Positions 1,854 through 38,344 of a stretch of DNA of 38,344 nucleotides are shown here, piece after piece. The stretch lies in IMG/VR virus record IMGVR_UViG_3300027985_000213; one strand, 5' to 3'. The position numbers and the translations under genes are program-made. Below the pieces are notes generated by a model. It did no database searches, was not told the origin of the DNA, and saw only the letters and a program-made list of their open reading frames with translations. Position 1 is the first letter of the stretch. Each line of letters starts with the position of its first letter. The stretch is from a virus.

Positions 1854-2207
1854 TTATTGTGATGATATGTTATTAAGATAAATGGATCCTTCCGTTATAT
1901 CCGGATTTTCCTTTTTGATCTTTAGAATGTTTTCCGCTTTCGCCTTCCAACAATAAAATGCGATTGTTGCAGCTGTCGGCGTTCCTATGAACGCCAATAC
2001 AACCCCTAGTTGCGTTACGTCTATAAAAACAACCTTGATGCCTACGAAAACCCCTATAAAATAGGTTGAAAGAACAAGAAGAAGTACGATTTTTGAAAAC
2101 TCGTACTTCTTACCTGTTTTTTTCTTTGAATTTAGTTTTATAGCGATTAATGCCGTTATGATGATCCCGACAACAACCCCTGCTATGATGAAATTAATAT
2201 AATTCAT
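1854..2207 (-). CDS. Holin-like membrane protein (three predicted TM segments)
   Basis: 117 aa with three hydrophobic stretches and a charged C-terminus. It sits between the XhlA-like gene and the endolysin, the xhlB position in PBSX. Confidence 0.55.
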   Translation of the reverse strand: MNYINFIIAGVVVGIIITALIAIKLNSKKKTGKKYEFSKIVLLLVLSTYFIGVFVGIKVVFIDVTQLGVVLAFIGTPTAATIAFYCWKAKAENILKIKKENPDITEGSIYLNNISSQ

Positions 2208-2223
2208 TTTGCACCGCCTTTAC

Positions 2224-2550
2224 TTAAAACAGTTTAGCTGCCGCAAATGCAACCCCTGCTAAGAGGATATATTTCACAACCTCATATTTTAAGTTGTCGA
2301 ATGTCTTTGCGTCTTTGCTTTTCATTGCCTCCATCGCCTCCGCAATCTTAACTATGTTTTTTTCTATAACCTCTATTGCGTCGAATATCCTTTCGATGTC
2401 TTTTCGGTTTTCACTTCTAGCGATCTCTAGGTCTGTAATCCGCTTTTCAAAGTCCTTTAATGTGTCCTTTGTTTCGTTAACTGCGTTCCAAACCGATTTT
2501 ATTCTGTCCTCTATGTTCCTCACCTGTATGCAGTCTTTACATTCATTCAA
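2224..2550 (-). CDS. xhlA: XhlA-like lysis-associated protein (coiled coil plus C-terminal TM)
   Basis: 108 aa with a long heptad-like charged helix and the C-terminal anchor YILLAGVAFAAAKLF. Same position as in the PBSX lysis cassette. Its start overlaps the RT stop by 8 nt. Confidence 0.6.
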   Translation of the reverse strand: MNECKDCIQVRNIEDRIKSVWNAVNETKDTLKDFEKRITDLEIARSENRKDIERIFDAIEVIEKNIVKIAEAMEAMKSKDAKTFDNLKYEVVKYILLAGVAFAAAKLF

Positions 2551-3664
2551 TGCCCTTCACCTCGTTCGCTCTGTTTCGTGATGCGTCTGTGCACCTTAAT
2601 ACGAAATCATTAATTATTTTTTCTCTTAGTCCGTCGTTTGTGCAATGCTTCATTAACCCGAAATAACTTTGCATTGTCGAATTGACTTCTTTTAATGTCA
2701 TTTCTCCTAACTCATAGGCTTTCTTAATGTATTTAATTCGTGCTTTCATTCTTTTAACTGTGGATTTTCTTAGCCTTATTTCGTCTTTGTTAATGACATA
2801 CCCCACAAAATCGACGTTGCAGGTAGTCGGTCTTATGACCGTTTTATTGTTTAAATTCAGCTTTAATTTTTCAAGTAAAAATACTTCTATTTTTTCTTGG
2901 ATTTCTTTTAGCTGCTTTTTGTCGTTGTGAAGTATTATGCAGTCGTCCATATATCTTATTGCGTACTTTAACCTTAACTCGTGTTTCAAGTATTGATCTA
3001 GTTCGTTCATATATATGTTTGCGAACATTTGGCTTGTTAGGTTCCCTATCGGCATTCCTTTGTCGAATATCATTTCTTGTGGTGCGACATCGCAAGGATC
3101 CAAACCCAACGGCAGCCCAAACGCTCTTTTTTCTGACTTTATTATTTTTCTAAGCAGCTCTAATAGCCTGCCGTCTTTTATTCTTTTTTCCAGTATGTTT
3201 AATAAAACTTCGTGATCCACACGATAATAGAATTTCGAAATATCAAGTTTCAAGTAATAGTATTGTTCCAGTTTCCTGTCTGTTTGCCGTAACCAATACT
3301 GCAGGCGATTGCCTGCCTTTTCTCTGCCTTTTTCTTTTCTGCAGCCGTAACTATCCCCTATGTACGTCTTTTCGTATAGCGGATTTAATAGCCTGTAGAT
3401 CGCCCATTGTAGCACACGATCTCGATATTGCAACGCCATTATTAACCTTTTCTTTGGAACGTGGATATACATAACCCTATAGCCACTTACTTTATATGTT
3501 CCTTCTTTTAACTCTTTGTACAACTTGTTTAAGTTGCTATCTAATTCCAATGAAAAGCGCATTATCTCGTTTCTTTCACTTTTACATCGCATAGCGTCAA
3601 TATGGGCGGCATAGATATTGTTGTAGCTTATTACGTCGTCGTATGTTACTTTGAATTTTTTCAT
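2543..3664 (-). CDS. DGR reverse transcriptase
   Basis: 373 aa with RT motifs LKLDISKFYYRVDH, GMPIGNLTSQMFANIYMNELD (DGR-type motif 4) and IRYMDDCIIL (YMDD). It lies directly downstream of the TR on the same strand. No maturase, endonuclease or RNase H domain is present. Confidence 0.9.
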   Translation of the reverse strand: MKKFKVTYDDVISYNNIYAAHIDAMRCKSERNEIMRFSLELDSNLNKLYKELKEGTYKVSGYRVMYIHVPKKRLIMALQYRDRVLQWAIYRLLNPLYEKTYIGDSYGCRKEKGREKAGNRLQYWLRQTDRKLEQYYYLKLDISKFYYRVDHEVLLNILEKRIKDGRLLELLRKIIKSEKRAFGLPLGLDPCDVAPQEMIFDKGMPIGNLTSQMFANIYMNELDQYLKHELRLKYAIRYMDDCIILHNDKKQLKEIQEKIEVFLLEKLKLNLNNKTVIRPTTCNVDFVGYVINKDEIRLRKSTVKRMKARIKYIKKAYELGEMTLKEVNSTMQSYFGLMKHCTNDGLREKIINDFVLRCTDASRNRANEVKGIE

Positions 3665-3841
3665 GTCTTATCATATCGCCTTAATATGCCATGCGTTGCA
3701 CCGTTCGCCTGTAGGCTACTAGCTGCATTCATGGAAATTTTTATTTTTCTTATCATTTGATAAGAAGGGAAATGCGCCCCTTTTCTTCTCTCTGTACTGT
3801 ACGCCGCCCACGTGTTGCGGCATATGCTTACTATATGAGAA
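3665..3841 (-). ncRNA. DGR spacer region between TR and RT (part of the presumed TR-containing RNA)
   Basis: 177 nt non-coding. Contains hairpin GCCGC-N9-GCGGC (3803-3821, with CACGTG in the loop), palindrome GCATATGC (3820-3827) and palindrome CTTATCAttTGATAAG (3749-3764). The role is assigned by position only. Confidence 0.55.
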
Positions 3842-3958
3842 AAGCGGAGAAAAACCCTAAATTCGCATTCGAGTTAGAACGAGGGTTGTTCAAATTGCCG
3901 TTAGCCTCTCCGGCATTCGCACCATTACCATAATTACCGCCTCGGTAGAGCAGCCTTT
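3842..3958 (-). repeat. DGR template repeat (TR)
   Basis: 117 nt, non-coding. Aligns without gaps to 4466-4582 at a constant offset of 624. In the VR frame it carries 10 AAY and 2 TAY codons. Confidence 0.9.
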
Positions 3959-3979
3959 ACGGCGCATTCCCCATAGTTT

Positions 3980-4384
3980 TTATTTCAGCTTGTTAAGCCA
4001 ACTACCTAATATTCGTCCCATTTCCTCTAGTTTCTCGCTCCACTTTCTTTGTTTTTCGAGTGGTAGCACTACCGTTTTAGGATCAAACTTCGGATCCGCC
4101 ACTATTAACAGTAGTTGCCTAAGAAACTTTATTTTTGCATCTGCCTGCGTTAATGCCGTTTTCTTCTTTTCCTTCGTCGCTGCATCTGTGAGCAGGTCTA
4201 GTATTTCGTACATGCTCTTTTCGATTTGTGCACCGATGCTGTTACCTACTCTGTATCTTTTCGGAAATTGAGCATGGTATAGGCAGGCATTGCCGTACTG
4301 TATCATTTCTCTTGTTTTCTTGAAAATCAATAGATCTTCTTTTTGTTCCGGCGGCTTTTCCGTCGCTCTAAAGTTTCTTTGCAT
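3980..4384 (-). CDS. avd: Accessory variability determinant (Avd-like four-helix-bundle protein)
   Basis: 134 aa, basic and predicted helical, with the FPKRYR motif typical of the Avd / 23S rRNA intervening-sequence protein family. It sits between the target gene and the TR. SD is AAGGAG. Confidence 0.8.
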   Translation of the reverse strand: MQRNFRATEKPPEQKEDLLIFKKTREMIQYGNACLYHAQFPKRYRVGNSIGAQIEKSMYEILDLLTDAATKEKKKTALTQADAKIKFLRQLLLIVADPKFDPKTVVLPLEKQRKWSEKLEEMGRILGSWLNKLK

Positions 4385-4409
4385 CTTGGCAACTCCTTAA
4401 TTTAAAATA

Positions 4410-4433
4410 GGGCGCACGCTGCCGCATGCACCC
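4410..4433 (-). promoter_or_regulatory. GC-rich hairpin just downstream of the DGR target gene (target-recognition and/or terminator element)
   Basis: The minus-strand RNA/DNA GGGUGCAUGC-GGCA-GCGUGCGCCC forms a 10-bp stem (two G:U pairs) with a 4-nt loop, 6 nt after the stop codon. On the plus strand the same positions are C/A mismatches. Confidence 0.6.
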
Positions 4434-4439
4434 ACAGGA

Positions 4440-5504
4440 TTAAAGATAGAGGGCAGGATCCACGTAAGCGGAGAAAAACCCTAAAATCGCAGACGAGAGA
4501 GAGCGAGGGTAGTACAAATGGCCGAGAGCCTCTCCGGCAGTCGCACCATTACCAAAATTACCGCCTCGGAAGAGCAGCCTTTCACCGTTGTTTCTCATAT
4601 AAAAACCGCCTCTTCCTGTTTTGGCTGTGTTAGGGAATAACGCTAACGCTTTTAGCATGTCCGGAACGGTTACGCCTGCTTTTGCTGTCAACGTGCCGAA
4701 ATCTTTATAGCCGTATGGCGTTTCGTCTGTTTGCTTGTTTTCAATTGTTGTCGAAACATAAAAATTTCCTGTTCCTGCCGTTGGCGTTGCCGAATAATCA
4801 AACTTTAATGTTGCATCTGTACCAGGGGCAACAAATGAACCATCTTGTAAAATCCCTTTCCATGCTGCGCTTGTAGATTTTTGATCTACATTGTGCATCG
4901 CTGCGTTGTTGTTAGGGATTACTTGGATCTCGCCCTCGTTAAGCCTCATTCCGGAAACCCATTTAACCACATTGCCCACTAGATCCCAAACGTCATTTCC
5001 TACACCGTCGATGCACCAAGATTTGTCGCCGGATCCTGTTAGTGTTCGGTATGCTCCGCTTTGATTTGTTGGACTTAACACGCCTTTTTCATATGCTTTA
5101 ACGTGAGATTTTCCGTTATTCGTGTTTCCTCTCGGCTCTAGTCCTGCTGCCGTAATTTTGTTGTGAAGTAATCCCCACTCTGCAGCCGTCAATAGATGCC
5201 ACCCTGCGCCTTTGTTGTAGCATACCTCTAACGCTCTGTCGTAGGTAACATAGTTTGCAGGATCTTGATTTGGTAAGCTGTAAGCACGATTGTTTTTAAC
5301 GATGTTGATGTACTTCGATACATAAATGTATGGCACTACAACGTCATTAACCACAAATGCAGGGTGTGGAACATGCGCCGCACCTATGCCCAATTCGTCC
5401 AAATATACTAATGGCACTTTTACCATTACCGACGGTAACCCTAGATCATCTAAAATAATTTCATTGTTTGCCGCTGCTGCCCTTAAATCTTCATAATTAC
5501 TCAT
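4440..5504 (-). CDS. DGR target: variable receptor-binding protein with FGE-sulfatase / C-type-lectin-like fold
   Basis: 354 aa with FGE/SUMF1-like motifs (GWHLLTAAEW, DLVGNVVKWV, RGGNF). The C-terminal 40 codons are the VR. It is the last gene of the tail-fibre region. Confidence 0.85.
   Translation of the reverse strand: MSNYEDLRAAAANNEIILDDLGLPSVMVKVPLVYLDELGIGAAHVPHPAFVVNDVVVPYIYVSKYINIVKNNRAYSLPNQDPANYVTYDRALEVCYNKGAGWHLLTAAEWGLLHNKITAAGLEPRGNTNNGKSHVKAYEKGVLSPTNQSGAYRTLTGSGDKSWCIDGVGNDVWDLVGNVVKWVSGMRLNEGEIQVIPNNNAAMHNVDQKSTSAAWKGILQDGSFVAPGTDATLKFDYSATPTAGTGNFYVSTTIENKQTDETPYGYKDFGTLTAKAGVTVPDMLKALALFPNTAKTGRGGFYMRNNGERLLFRGGNFGNGATAGEALGHLYYPRSLSSAILGFFSAYVDPALYL
4466..4582 (-). repeat. 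DGR variable repeat (VR), inside the 3' end of the target gene
   Basis: 117 nt, 103/117 identical to the TR. 13 of the 14 differences are at TR adenines (coding strand). Confidence 0.9.
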
Positions 5505-5844
5505 TGATATATACCCCCTCTATGCTCCATAGTGTTAACGTGCATTTTGTAATGTCGAAATCCTTTTGTACTTTTTCATATGTTGGCTTGCCTTCTGCGT
5601 CCGGCTCTCCCTCTACATACTCGTATTCTTTAGCCGGTATTTCAATTTGCGCTACGTAATTGTAGCCTAAACCCATTACTAAGTTGCCGTCGCTATCTGC
5701 GCAAATATCTTTCGTTACTACGTCGTCCGTCTGTAGCTTTGGCAACCTCACCGCTAACACATCGCCGATCCACAACGTCGAACCCTCTAAAGAGTAACTA
5801 ATTTTCTTTCCTTCGTTCTTTTCAACTACTTTAATCGTTGACAT
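5497..5844 (-). CDS. Hypothetical tail-fibre-region protein
   Basis: 115-aa ORF translationally coupled to both neighbours (overlapping stop/start). No motif recognised. Confidence 0.5.
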   Translation of the reverse strand: MSTIKVVEKNEGKKISYSLEGSTLWIGDVLAVRLPKLQTDDVVTKDICADSDGNLVMGLGYNYVAQIEIPAKEYEYVEGEPDAEGKPTYEKVQKDFDITKCTLTLWSIEGVYINE

Positions 5845-6338
5845 TAAATCTTACCTCCTATTATGAAATATTTAATTGTTATCGGCTGTTTCGGGCAATC
5901 TTCTACCTCGACTTTGAAGCCGTTTAACTGCTTGTCTTTAATTCGAATTTCTCTGCCCTGCACCAAATTGTCGCAATATGGTATCACTAAATAATTTAGT
6001 GTATTGCGTGCCTTTGCCATCGAAACCGTTACGCTCTGTGTGTTAAACGGATAATCTTCCGTTGTCGATACTTGAACCTCTCCGATTTCGAAATAGGTGT
6101 TTTCTAATTCTCTTTGGTGCTGCAGCAATTGAACGATAGCCATGTTTGCCAATATCATAGCTTCGTTAATTCCATGTTCCCCTACCATCATGTTAGTTTG
6201 ATTAAAGCTAGTTCCTGCCTCGATAACCTCACCCACAACCGGCGTTAATGTTATGGTGCCGTCTGCGTTTTCGGTTATCGAGTACGTATTGCTTTTTTCA
6301 GTTCTTCGGTTTTTCCATAAAACTAAATCGTATGCCAT
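5844..6338 (-). CDS. Putative tail fibre / baseplate-distal protein
   Basis: 164 aa with an AGGAGG SD. The N-terminus (W.N....N.Y...ENADGTITLTP..GEV...GT..N..N) resembles N-termini of Firmicutes phage fibre proteins. The call is mainly positional. Confidence 0.4.
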   Translation of the reverse strand: MAYDLVLWKNRRTEKSNTYSITENADGTITLTPVVGEVIEAGTSFNQTNMMVGEHGINEAMILANMAIVQLLQHQRELENTYFEIGEVQVSTTEDYPFNTQSVTVSMAKARNTLNYLVIPYCDNLVQGREIRIKDKQLNGFKVEVEDCPKQPITIKYFIIGGKI

Positions 6339-7392: not shown

Positions 7393-8444
7393 GTAATCAC
7401 GCCCCTAACCGGTACGGCGTTTGGATCTAATAGCAGGTTTTCGGCTACTCCGTTTAGTTCTGTGTTTTGCACGTCTATTACGCCTTCCACGCTTGCTATT
7501 GCCGCATTTATTTTCAGTATTCTAACCGTTAGATAATCTTCATTCTCCCAAGTTTTCGTTAACTCTAAATAATAATCATCTAGTTTCGTTTGGATCATCG
7601 GTAACAAATCTTCCCACACATAACCGGTATCTAGCATTACGTTTGCTGCTATGTCGATCGTCGTTGCTGCGCATGGGTAAATGTCTACTATATGGTATAT
7701 CGTGGCTTTGCCTTCGCCTTCTCCTTGCTTTCCTATTGGATCTATAATTTCTTGTACGTCTGATACTAGCGTTTCGTTTGGCGTGCTGTATGCGCTATCT
7801 AGGAAGTATATTTTAATTCTGTTTTCGTCTTTAGTTACTCTGTATACCTTGCAGGCTCCCACGCCCTCTATGTCGTGCATTATGCTTTTGTATTGCGCCC
7901 TATTCCCTCCGAACGCTTGCGCCGCTCCTACAATTGATAAATACCTTGCCCTATATACTTCTGTTTCTTCGTCGTCCCTTGCAGGCGTTAATAGTTCTGT
8001 CAATTCGCCTGTTTCATATCCTGCGATAAATTCAATCGGCGTTAAGTCGCCTTTTTTCGTGTTACCTATAATGCCTGCCTGTTCGCACATTAACCTATAG
8101 GCTTGATCTTCCGTTTCCTCTGTGCATATATATGTCAATTCACCTGCAGAAAACCTAGCGCCTATTTCTATTTCTACGTTGAATTGTGCTTTCCATATCG
8201 CATTAGTTTTTTCAAGTGGCAGGATCCCTCTTTCTTTTCCTCTCAAAATCAAATGCTCTCTGTCTGCAGTTTCCGCATATCCGTTTTTATCAATTAAGCC
8301 TAAATTGATGTAGGCTTGTTCAAATTCCGTCGCCGCTCCTGCGAACGAGTGATTTATTAGCGTCCCCTCTTCTTTGCTTATATCGCTGTCAACGGTATCT
8401 AACAAATCTTTCATAATATTGTTTTGCGTTTTGTCCTCAAACAT
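7380..8444 (-). CDS. Baseplate J-like protein (XkdT-like)
   Basis: 354 aa. Size, position and general sequence character match baseplate J / gp47-type proteins. SD is AAAGGAGG. Confidence 0.65.
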   Translation of the reverse strand: MFEDKTQNNIMKDLLDTVDSDISKEEGTLINHSFAGAATEFEQAYINLGLIDKNGYAETADREHLILRGKERGILPLEKTNAIWKAQFNVEIEIGARFSAGELTYICTEETEDQAYRLMCEQAGIIGNTKKGDLTPIEFIAGYETGELTELLTPARDDEETEVYRARYLSIVGAAQAFGGNRAQYKSIMHDIEGVGACKVYRVTKDENRIKIYFLDSAYSTPNETLVSDVQEIIDPIGKQGEGEGKATIYHIVDIYPCAATTIDIAANVMLDTGYVWEDLLPMIQTKLDDYYLELTKTWENEDYLTVRILKINAAIASVEGVIDVQNTELNGVAENLLLDPNAVPVRGVITCKE

Positions 8445-38199: not shown

Positions 38200-38340
38200 T
38201 CAACCGAGAGTGAATAGAGATACGATTTTTTTACGCCCATATCTCTTGTAAAATTCCTCGTTACTTAGGCTTAGATCTACTTTTTCATTTATATTATTAT
38301 CCATATTGGCATCTATCCTCTCATTACTATAAATTTTCAT
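38200..38340 (-). CDS. Possible 46-aa ORF spanning the junction between the window ends
   Basis: Own translation: MKIYSNERIDANMDNNINEKVDLSLSNEEFYKRYGRKKIVSLFTLG. There is no convincing SD. It is complete only in the right-hand repeat copy. Confidence 0.2.
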   Translation of the reverse strand: MKIYSNERIDANMDNNINEKVDLSLSNEEFYKRYGRKKIVSLFTLG

Positions 38341-38344
38341 CGTT
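38201..38344. repeat. Direct terminal repeat, right copy (identical to 1-144)
   Basis: Exact 144-nt identity with the start of the window. Confidence 0.95.

Follow-up and report, generated by a model that had tools for sequence, protein, structure and literature searches.

The analysed stretch of viral DNA (38,344 nucleotides, IMG/VR record IMGVR_UViG_3300027985_000213; hereafter the window) very probably carries a complete diversity-generating retroelement (DGR) of the BPP-1/TaqVP type, which is located at the tail-module end of a complete temperate contractile-tailed phage with a circular genome of about 38.2 kb. The host of this phage is most likely a member of the gut Lachnospiraceae (gut Clostridia). 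In such a system, an error-prone reverse transcriptase would rewrite the tip of a tail-associated binding protein.

Organization of the cassette and closest known systems

On the minus strand, the elements follow each other in the order target/VR, hairpin, avd, TR, spacer and RT (Table 1). The four colinear minus-strand elements listed in the first-pass annotation were all recovered at their positions, and the checks of the RT, the 134-aa protein, the target and related phage populations all favoured the DGR reading proposed there. We observed every part of the system, an adenine-specific pattern of TR/VR differences and adenine-specific VR divergence among near-identical phages sharing the same TR. 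The cassette represents an ordinary, well-known kind of DGR, which is complete and apparently working.

Table 1. Positions of the DGR elements and of neighbouring genes in the window
Feature	Position	Strand	Basis or remark
XhlA-like first lysis-cassette gene, adjoining/overlapping the RT stop	2224-2550	-	PHROG 937
DGR reverse transcriptase, 373 aa, RT domain only	2543-3664	-	ORF, Pfam, PHROG, PDB relative
Spacer RNA, Rfam RF02921 (RT-14 RNA)	3689-3843	-	cmscan
TR, 117 nt, non-coding	3842-3958	-	direct repeat of VR, offset 624 nt
avd (accessory variability determinant), 134 aa, between VR and TR	3980-4384	-	Pfam, PHROG, fold
GC-rich hairpin/cruciform-type inverted repeat downstream of VR	4410-4433	-	10-bp stem, loop GGCA
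Target (variable protein), 354 aa, TaqVP-type C-type-lectin (FGE-subtype) fold	4440-5504	-	ORF, phmmer, AF2
VR, 117 nt, codons 308-346 of 354	4466-4582	-	88% identical to TR
Two small conserved ORFs upstream of target (164 aa, 5844-6338; 115 aa, 5497-5844)	5497-6338	-	PHROG 9010, 8734

The mtd-avd-TR-brt order of Bordetella phage BPP-1, to which the cassette had initially been compared, is matched by the order target/VR-avd-TR-spacer-RT of the window. In both systems, the TR is AAY-rich and differs from the VR specifically at adenines, the RT is of the IGxxxSQ type and carries R74 and I181 or their equivalents, Avd is a four-helix protein, a GC-rich hairpin with a GRNA loop follows the VR, and TR and RT are separated by a structured spacer. 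However, only about one third of the aligned RT residues and some 22% of the Avd residues are identical. The spacer belongs to Rfam RT-14 (RT-10 in BPP-1), a GC14-type IMH/IMH* as in BPP-1 is not recognisable in the window, and, unlike BPP-1, the window phage is of the Firmicutes type and has a contractile tail and an Xkd-like baseplate.

The DGR of a Thermus aquaticus prophage, which involves TaqVP (PDB 5VF4) as variable protein, resembles the window in its order taqvp-avd-TR-rt and in the equivalent C-terminal position of the VR. Its variable protein is homologous to our target over nearly the full length (about 35% identity, model TM 0.89), but identity amounts to only about a third, and host phylum and phage background are different.

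Among deposited phages, the nearest ones were Clostridium phage Saumur (ON453901, host Enterocloster clostridioformis), Dulem virus 37 (PP511443) and Faecalibacterium phage FP_Lagaffe. The window arrangement baseplate-small ORFs-target-Avd-TR-RT-XhlA/holin-lysin recurs in Saumur and Dulem virus 37, both of which also have adenine-specific TR/VR pairs. In contrast, identity to the nearest deposited phages is only 42-51% for the RT and 36-41% for the target, and the spacers of Saumur and Dulem virus 37 score under the RT-14 threshold. A search at the nucleotide level with the DGR region (window 2200-5900) gave no match.

Target protein and phage context

The 354-aa protein had been expected to adopt a CLec/FGE fold, and sequence and model comparisons agreed with this expectation. 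In phmmer, residues 18-336 aligned with PDB 5VF4 (E 1.4e-58), and when the AF2 model of the target (pLDDT 87.8, pTM 0.91) was searched with Foldseek, 5vf4 was again the top match (TMq 0.89, E 3e-37), followed by weak matches to PvdO, Mtd and TvpA. PDB 5VF4 is TaqVP, a monomeric, single-domain protein that lacks a fibre shaft (PMC6328139). The target also matched PHROG 2889 (3.7e-99), and PF03781 FGE-sulfatase is present in its distant homologues. Its VR aligns with the VR of TaqVP, which suggests that the VR residues are exposed on the surface of the target.

The phage genes include terminase, portal, capsid, sheath, tube, tape measure, a lysis cassette and a serine recombinase, and its baseplate proteins are XkdP/Q/R/S/T/U-like. 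From the position of its gene and a weak match to a PHROG 'tail protein' family, we infer that the target is part of the virion. It has been considered whether the DGR is active but diversifies a lysogen-expressed surface, adhesion or exclusion protein encoded beside the tail genes, instead of a receptor-binding protein. This alternative appears unlikely. It would fit the shaftless, monomeric single-domain structure of TaqVP-type proteins and the terminator-like hairpin after the target gene; moreover, no Pfam domain ties the target to the baseplate and no baseplate-attachment or trimerisation domain was recognisable in it. However, the target is the last gene of the baseplate/tail block and is encoded on the same strand, with an 8-nt overlap of its start with the preceding 115-aa ORF, and there is no other long fibre gene between the XkdU-like gp48 and the lysis genes. 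In addition, the match to the 'tail protein' family covers the C-terminal third of the target, and the gene has kept its position in Saumur, Dulem virus 37 and FP_Lagaffe, where it is annotated as Mtd-like. Mtd, the prototype of these proteins, sits at the tip of the tail fibre. Diversification of a receptor-binding protein is the reading we prefer.

The two small ORFs upstream of the target belong to families of unknown function. Despite the poor conservation of the baseplate genes, a homologue of the 115-aa ORF precedes the target in both Saumur and Dulem virus 37. The 164-aa ORF has a homologue at this place in Saumur only, and no match in Dulem virus 37 was obtained at E <= 1e-4. It is possible that the two ORFs encode partners of the variable protein.

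At the other end of the cassette, the XhlA-like gene matched PHROG 937 'hemolysin' (4.7e-13), and Pfam gave nothing but coiled-coil noise at E <= 0.01. An 8-nt overlap between the RT stop and this gene had been described. It holds if translation starts at the TTG at 2550, which is preceded by a GAGGTG Shine-Dalgarno sequence 7 nt upstream, but not for the public gene call of the same DNA, which starts at 2523. In Dulem virus 37, the gene following the RT is annotated as 'haemolysin XhlA', and here too the two genes overlap. The suggestion that the cassette had been inserted into an Xkd-type junction was not supported: the same order baseplate-small ORFs-target-avd-TR-RT-XhlA/lysin is present in phages with 42-51% RT identity, and there was no compositional break at the cassette. 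The DGR cassette is a conserved part of the tail-to-lysis region of this phage lineage and not a demonstrable insertion. Its overlapping or tight same-strand junctions would fit co-transcription with the late genes.

Template and variable repeats, hairpin and spacer RNA

The last 40 codons of the target gene had been reported to recur downstream. The repeat and its offset of 624 nt were confirmed, but the VR ends 8 codons plus the stop codon short of the gene end. When each A of the TR was replaced by N, the resulting pattern matched two sites only (TR and VR) with none expected; the TR/VR repeat is not a chance event. Thirteen of the 14 mismatches fall on the 29 TR adenines and a single one on the 88 other bases (Fisher p = 1.3e-8). 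This lone non-adenine mismatch (TR T3879/VR C4503) converts CGT to CGC and is synonymous. It is an ordinary point mutation that has not yet been overwritten, and therefore the VR copy of the window has not been re-homed since the T>C exchange arose.

The TR involves 10 AAY codons, its flanks contain stop codons in the VR frame, and a stop codon cannot arise from any exchange at a TR adenine. Together with the few other adenine-bearing codons, the ten AAY codons would permit as many as about 2e14 variants of the C-type-lectin-fold protein, which would differ on its ligand-binding face. No mismatch separates TR and VR along the A-poor 3' segment TTTAGGGTTTTTCTCCGCTT as far as the end of the homology, where the two sequences diverge abruptly. 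An IMH/IMH* pair resembling that of BPP-1 (GC-only 14-mer, TR-specific differences) was not recognisable from the TR and VR sequences.

Adenine-specific VR variation in populations, the absence of which would have spoken against a DGR, was found among near-identical phages. We compared the window with three such phages from other samples (L001, L007, L010). The four phages have 98% identical RTs and TRs identical at 117/117 or 116/117 positions, but carry four different VRs. Pairwise, these VRs differ at 11-15 positions, all of them TR-adenine sites except for the synonymous T>C of the window. When 12 related loci were considered, the VR differed at 131/299 TR adenines versus 4/1075 other positions. 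A shared TR combined with different VRs at TR-adenine sites indicates that mutagenic retrohoming has been active recently, after these phages diverged; the comparison is one between samples and does not relate to present-day activity.

One may also ask whether the system is a real DGR that has become an inactive fossil, so that the between-sample VR differences are historical and the window copy no longer diversifies. The unerased synonymous T>C in the VR of the window, the promoter scan of the window, in which no signal stood out above shuffles, and the between-sample nature of the VR comparison would be in line with such a fossil. We nevertheless regard it as very unlikely. None of the DGR ORFs is disrupted, the catalytic YMDD and the IGxxxSQ motif are kept, and the TR was conserved (at most 1 nt change) while the neighbouring genes drifted by 2-6% (93-98% identity of the genes flanking the TR in the three related phages). 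Furthermore, spacer RNA and target hairpin are both conserved and show compensatory changes, and the four near-identical phages have four different VRs.

Additional assemblies of the same phage species are publicly available (Logan SRR7216773, SRR28093312; IMG/VR UViG_3300035042_000214, UViG_3300034524_000001). They resemble the window in RT (98-100% identical), TR (the same) and architecture, but each of them carries its own VR, and none is functionally annotated.

The hairpin (GGGTGCATGC-GGCA-GCGTGCGCCC) is located 6 nt past the target stop codon and 32 nt past the end of the TR/VR homology. It was kept in all relatives checked, where the stems differ with compensation and the loops read GGCA, GATA or GACA. 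Published DGR target hairpins consist of a GC-rich stem of 7-10 bp and a GRNA loop of 4 nt and are located 4-34 bp from the VR (PMC3240598), and the window hairpin fits this description. It also looked terminator-like in a simple scan and could act as transcription terminator, instead or in addition.

Between the TR end (3842) and the RT start (3664) there is a spacer of 177 nt, as noted before. Here, cmscan detected the RT-14 RNA with 73.5 bits (gathering score 48.1) over the full model (1-144). RT-14 was present at the equivalent site in 9 related DGR loci, and RNAalifold of 8 spacers indicated compensatory changes in 17 of 31 pairs. RT-10, the sister motif of RT-14, is found at the equivalent place in BPP-1 (PMC5737381), the spacer of which folds back on the TR, with priming from Sp A56 (PMC6182149).

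Self-priming, the RT-Avd RNP, the role of the hairpin and the function of the target as receptor-binding protein are transferred here from work on BPP-1. By this analogy, an RNA spanning (avd-)TR-spacer would be transcribed, and the structured RT-14 spacer would fold back beside the 3' end of the TR and recruit the RT-Avd complex. The cDNA would then be self-primed from the spacer, and the TR would be copied with random nucleotides opposite template adenines. Finally, the VR in the 3'-terminal part of the target gene would be replaced by the cDNA, guided by the A-free 3' homology and by the GC-rich hairpin with a GRNA loop that closely follows the VR.

A wider joint reading, to which we would give somewhat less than an even chance, covers one Clostridia-phage DGR clade. 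In this clade, the orphan family RT-14 might be the functional counterpart of the BPP-1 Sp/RT-10, with a 5' stem starting 2 nt before the TR end and a purine-rich return strand (about 3786-3797) that provides the self-priming nucleotide. At the same time, the conserved 115-aa ORF (with the 164-aa ORF where present) might serve as a dedicated adaptor by which the monomeric TaqVP-type protein is attached to a baseplate of the Xkd type. If true, this would define a portable 'adaptor + variable protein + DGR' module that moves between baseplate backgrounds.

Reverse transcriptase and Avd

The motifs on which the RT had been recognised (LKLDISKFY, PIGNLTSQMFANIY and YMDD) are present in the translation, and sequence comparisons assign the enzyme to the DGR type. 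It matched Pfam RVT_1 (88 bits) and PHROG 1423 (5.9e-132), and its best solved relative in the PDB was the bRT of BPP-1 (8ub7, E 6.8e-40), whereas the best group II RT reached only 1.5e-21. DGR RTs carry the signature [I/V/L]GxxxSQ and group II RTs QGxxxSP (PMC7826257); the window enzyme reads IGNLTSQ (residues 206-212) and has the catalytic YMDD. Its R73 and I206 align with R74 and I181 of bRT, both of which promote adenine mutagenesis (PMC7826257).

Membership in a group II intron was rejected, since Rfam found no flanking intron RNA domains and the RT/maturase model scored far below its cut-off; retron, DRT and Abi membership was rejected because the family RT models, including the Drt models of NCBIfam, stayed far under their cut-offs and PADLOC made no specific call. 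The probability that the RT comes from such a retroelement or defence system and that the repeat is an unrelated duplication is virtually nil: the best-named NCBIfam match is group_II_RT_mat (TIGR04416), PADLOC returned generic RT/UG matches for the RT (zero for neighbouring genes) and similar genes are often labelled 'retron-type RT' in public annotations, but the scores are far from the cut-offs (137 versus 300 bits for group II, 51 versus 235 for retron_St85_RT), Rfam found neither group II intron nor retron RNA in the window while detecting group II domains in the control loci L005 and L006, bRT came out as the best structural relative, and the window also has Avd, an adenine-specific TR/VR pair, the AAY design of the TR and a GRNA hairpin.

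The 134-aa protein had been predicted to be Avd-like, and the FPK motif quoted for it was found in the translation. It scored 66.1 bits against Pfam bAvd PF22296 (cut-off 40) and 68.7 bits against NCBIfam DivGenRetAVD, which is under the trusted cut-off of 80, and it matched PHROG 3206 'Avd protein of DGR' (1.3e-17). As modelled by AF2 from the single sequence, it forms a four-helix bundle (pLDDT 76), and the top PDB matches of this model in Foldseek were the BPP-1 Avd chains of 8ub7 and 4dwl (TMt 0.83-0.85).

The repeat pair and its variation

The cassette had been read from the sequence as a complete diversity-generating retroelement (DGR), and this reading holds. We found a template repeat (TR) and a variable region (VR) that form an adenine-specific pair, a DGR-type reverse transcriptase (RT), an Avd protein and a target protein resembling TaqVP, the variable protein from a prophage of Thermus aquaticus. 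The principle of DGRs is well understood and tens of thousands of them have been catalogued. The present cassette is a textbook DGR, uncharacterised, of this well-known class, and it leaves the general knowledge of DGRs unchanged. Its value is that of a clean natural example, a complete circular temperate phage with sister genomes that carry different VRs from one TR.

Features of the DGR cassette and its surroundings (positions in the window unless a locus is named; L011 and L012, related DGR loci; L013, Clostridium phage Saumur; L014, Dulem virus 37)
Feature	Position	Strand	Remark
RT ORF, 373 aa	2543-3664	minus	ORF list
RT-14 (Rfam RF02921), full-length match	3689-3843	minus	73.5 bits vs. 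gathering score of 48.1
TR	3842-3958		
avd ORF, 134 aa	3980-4384	minus	ORF list
GC-rich inverted repeat, 10-bp stem, loop GGCA	4410-4433	minus	between target and avd
target ORF, 354 aa	4440-5504	minus	ORF list
VR	4466-4582		
small ORFs, 164 aa and 115 aa	5497-6338	minus	PHROG 9010 and 8734, no assigned function
lysis-region direct repeats	L011 6855-7222; L012 6859-7223; L013 9115-9613; L014 9201-10089		

The motifs that the first-pass annotation had assigned to RT and Avd were found in the translated ORFs, and the plus-strand ORFs across 2543-5504 are all short and mechanical. The direct repeat is 117 nt long and has an offset of 624 nt. Its upstream copy (VR) corresponds to codons 308-346 of the target ORF. 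The downstream copy (TR) is non-coding, is flanked by in-frame stop codons on both sides and is separated from the RT start by 177 nt. The A-to-N pattern built from the TR matched two sites in the window (TR and VR; none expected), and the 3′ conserved segment of TR/VR also occurs only twice. Since a genome-wide search for a second VR with these two queries yielded nothing beyond the known sites, the phage involves one TR and one VR.

TR and VR differ at 14 positions, 13 of which fall on the 29 TR adenines, compared with a single one among the remaining 88 bases (Fisher p = 1.3e-8). The sole non-adenine mismatch (VR 4503 vs. TR 3879, T>C) turns CGT into the synonymous CGC and is restricted to the VR of the window. 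The variable adenines occupy positions 1 and 2 of ten AAY codons, plus TAY codons. No substitution of a TR adenine can lead to a stop codon, and the computed coding capacity of the TR is about 2e14 protein variants. This adenine-specific mismatch pattern is, together with the AAY design, the signature of a DGR. At TR/VR, no IMH/IMH* pair in the style of Bordetella phage BPP-1 was recognisable; with this exception, all published cis and trans elements of DGRs are recognisable in the phage.

For comparison of VR variation, we used the window and three near-identical phages from other samples (L001 from Logan, L007 and L010 from IMG/VR). Their TRs are identical to that of the window at 117/117 or 116/117 positions, and at the DNA level the target upstream of the VR is about 94% and the RT about 96% identical. 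The four VRs are all different. Pairwise differences amount to 11-15 positions, and all of them are TR-adenine sites except the window's one T>C. Across 12 related loci, the VR differs at 131 of 299 TR adenines vs. 4 of 1075 other bases. Adenine-specific VR variation in populations, which the first-pass annotation had named as its decisive test, is present in the four near-identical phages as well as in the 12 loci. These genome comparisons show retrohoming since the four phages diverged rather than present-day activity.

The adenine-templated VR changes in this phage species (n = 51) comprise 29 A>T, 20 A>C and 2 A>G exchanges. Distant relatives, such as Saumur, exhibit many A>G changes. The A>T/A>C skew could originate from a misincorporation bias of the RT or from selection on the displayed residues. 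At TR position 13, L001 (position 9719) differs by an A/T polymorphism, with a TTC codon in place of TAC. Both this exchange and the T>C in the window's VR are ordinary point differences in the repeat.

Proteins and RNA elements of the cassette

The RT involves one RVT_1 domain and matches PHROG 1423 (5.9e-132). Among solved structures, the BPP-1 DGR RT (8ub7) was the best match with an E-value of 6.8e-40, and group II intron RTs followed at 1e-21 or worse. The enzyme carries the sequence IGNLTSQ, which fits the DGR motif [I/V/L]GxxxSQ, whereas group II RTs show QGxxxSP instead (PMC7826257). Its residues R73 and I206 align with R74 and I181 of the BPP-1 enzyme, which have been shown to promote adenine mutagenesis. 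Scores against the group II, retron and DRT RT models of NCBIfam all lay far under the respective cut-offs, and PADLOC returned generic RT matches only, which were uninformative for class. At E <= 1e-20, 4016 RT homologues were found, the nearest of which is 98% identical, with many more near 80%.

The 134-aa protein scored above the Pfam bAvd cut-off (66 vs. 40 bits) and matched the PHROG 'Avd protein of DGR'; it stayed under the stricter Avd cut-off of NCBIfam (68.7 vs. 80). Modelled with AlphaFold from its sequence alone, the protein forms a four-helix bundle (pLDDT 76); in the PDB, this model is matched best by Avd chains in 8ub7 and 4dwl (TM 0.83-0.85). For the target, Pfam gave no match even at E <= 10, and the fold was assigned because of PDB and PHROG matches. 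The target is a clear homologue of TaqVP (PDB 5VF4, E 1.4e-58), a C-type-lectin-fold variable protein from the DGR of a T. aquaticus prophage (PMC6328139), and the VRs of the two proteins align. A model built from 42 homologues (pLDDT 87.8, pTM 0.91) superposed on TaqVP with a TM of 0.89, and other FGE-type CLec proteins, Mtd and TvpA among them, were matched weakly.

RT-14 begins 2 nt ahead of the TR end. It is one of 19 'RT' motifs detected near RT genes; the sister motif RT-10 was located in the TR-RT spacer of BPP-1, and the authors raised the speculation that further RT motifs have this role in other DGRs (PMC5737381). Nine related DGR loci (L001, L003, L004, L007-L012) carry RT-14 in the equivalent position, and 17 of the 31 RNAalifold pairs calculated from eight spacers exhibited compensatory changes. 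The spacer of BPP-1 folds back onto the 3′ end of the TR, and its Sp A56 supplies the 2′-OH from which the cDNA is primed (PMC6182149). In the first RT-14 stem, the bases that directly follow the TR are paired with purine-rich sequence some 50 nt further downstream, and by analogy to BPP-1 this stem would create a self-priming geometry, which appears plausible. The clear placement of RT-14 in a DGR spacer and the natural VR variants for one TR are modest extra points, and the phage is a test case for giving this Rfam motif a DGR spacer role. RT-14 marks TR-RT spacers down to 49% RT identity, yet at the gathering threshold it was absent from the spacers of Saumur (51%) and Dulem virus 37 (42%). 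Thus, the type of spacer RNA does not simply track RT similarity.

The hairpin behind the VR is located 6 nt past the target stop codon and 32 nt past the end of TR/VR homology. It is present at the same place in every relative examined, where the stems differ yet stay paired and the loops read GGCA, GATA or GACA. Guo et al. described the DGR target hairpin as a 7-10 bp GC-rich stem with a 4-nt GRNA loop at 4-34 bp from the VR, which is needed for efficient retrohoming (PMC3240598). Judged by its sequence and position, our hairpin is this target element. Because a simple scan also flags it as the region's strongest terminator-like site (10 pairs, tail TATTTTAAAT), a dual role is conceivable: it may function as retrohoming element plus terminator, and it might tune read-through into avd-TR-RT. 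A promoter scan indicated no enrichment vs. shuffles.

Relatives and probable host

An identical RT is present on the 38,230-nt Logan contig L002, which represents the same phage as the window, and the species is already contained, unannotated, in public metagenome assemblies. Megablast of 2200-5900 against GenBank phages gave no match; the nearest deposited phage shares about 51% RT identity. In GTDB genomes, the A-to-N TR pattern had no exact match and thus, no named host genome carries the TR. Among genome contigs, the only related loci were Lachnospiraceae MAGs (55% RT identity) and two group II intron loci used as negative controls, L005 (Babeliales MAG, 5468-5756) and L006 (Clostridium magnum, 1037-1257 and 7427-7503). 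L006 carries a HEARO RNA besides its group II intron. 'Hungatella sp.' (target homologue 72%) was the only further host name obtained from cluster look-ups, and Saumur has an Enterocloster host. Taken together, the Hungatella sp. homologue, the Lachnospiraceae MAGs and the host of Saumur suggest that our phage probably infects gut Lachnospiraceae, and it constitutes a test case for the host-range plasticity of such phages. The PHROG triple 2889/3206/1423 of our cassette has also been reported from a C. clostridioforme LM41 prophage (PMC11318856).

Gene order around the cassette

Positions 1-144 of the window are identical to 38201-38344, and on L002 the lysis cassette directly adjoins the serine recombinase, which lies at the window's other end. 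These data indicate that the window represents the complete genome of the phage, a circle of about 38.2 kb. The genome encodes terminase, portal, capsid, sheath, tube (DUF2001) and tape measure, and the baseplate involves LysM/XkdP-, YqbQ/XkdQ-, DUF2577/XkdR-, sheath-initiator/XkdS-, baseplate J/XkdT- and Mu gp48/XkdU-like proteins. Next come small ORFs of 93, 164 and 115 aa and then the DGR. The XhlA-like protein (PHROG 937) of the lysis region is accompanied by a membrane protein and an amidase, and further genes specify a large serine recombinase as well as HTH regulators. Gene annotation of the window confirms the order proposed before, an Xkd-type tail, the DGR and a lysis cassette. The early region (L002 17907-21122) contains a REP_ORF2-G2P-type replication initiator, RNase H, a DNA methylase and a weak radical-SAM match.

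The suggestion that the cassette was inserted at this junction found no support. The composition is flat, and the order baseplate, small ORFs, target, Avd, TR, RT, XhlA/holin and lysin is the same in Saumur (RT 51%, target 41%) and Dulem virus 37 (RT 42%, target 38%), both of which carry A-specific TR/VR pairs. With a flat composition and the order kept in such distant phages, a recent insertion was rejected. When viral contigs were searched with the 164-aa ORF for DGR-less relatives, DGR-bearing ones alone were recovered.

Between the 115-aa ORF and the target start there is an overlap of 8 nt, and homologues of this ORF adjoin the target in Saumur and Dulem virus 37 (L014 2728-3066). For the 164-aa ORF, a homologue was detected in Saumur only (small-ORF region L013 2995-3995), and Dulem virus 37 gave no match at E <= 1e-4. 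The window's baseplate genes show hardly any similarity to those of these two phages, and the baseplate J gene is not or barely conserved. The two small proteins may serve the variable protein as dedicated partners or adaptors. That a conserved 115-aa ORF accompanies TaqVP-type targets, joined by the 164-aa ORF in nearer relatives, is another modest extra point, and the phage offers a test case for the attachment of monomeric TaqVP-type variable proteins to a PBSX/Xkd-like baseplate.

At the other end of the cassette, the 8-nt overlap claimed for the RT stop and the xhlA-like start is obtained with a TTG start at 2550 (GAGGTG Shine-Dalgarno) and is lost with the public call at 2523. Dulem virus 37 likewise shows an overlap between the RT end and the gene annotated as XhlA. 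Downstream of the RT, the lysis region of relatives contains direct repeats of about 110-150 nt, which are 77-83% identical and lack an adenine bias; they are probably repeated cell-wall-binding domains of lysins.
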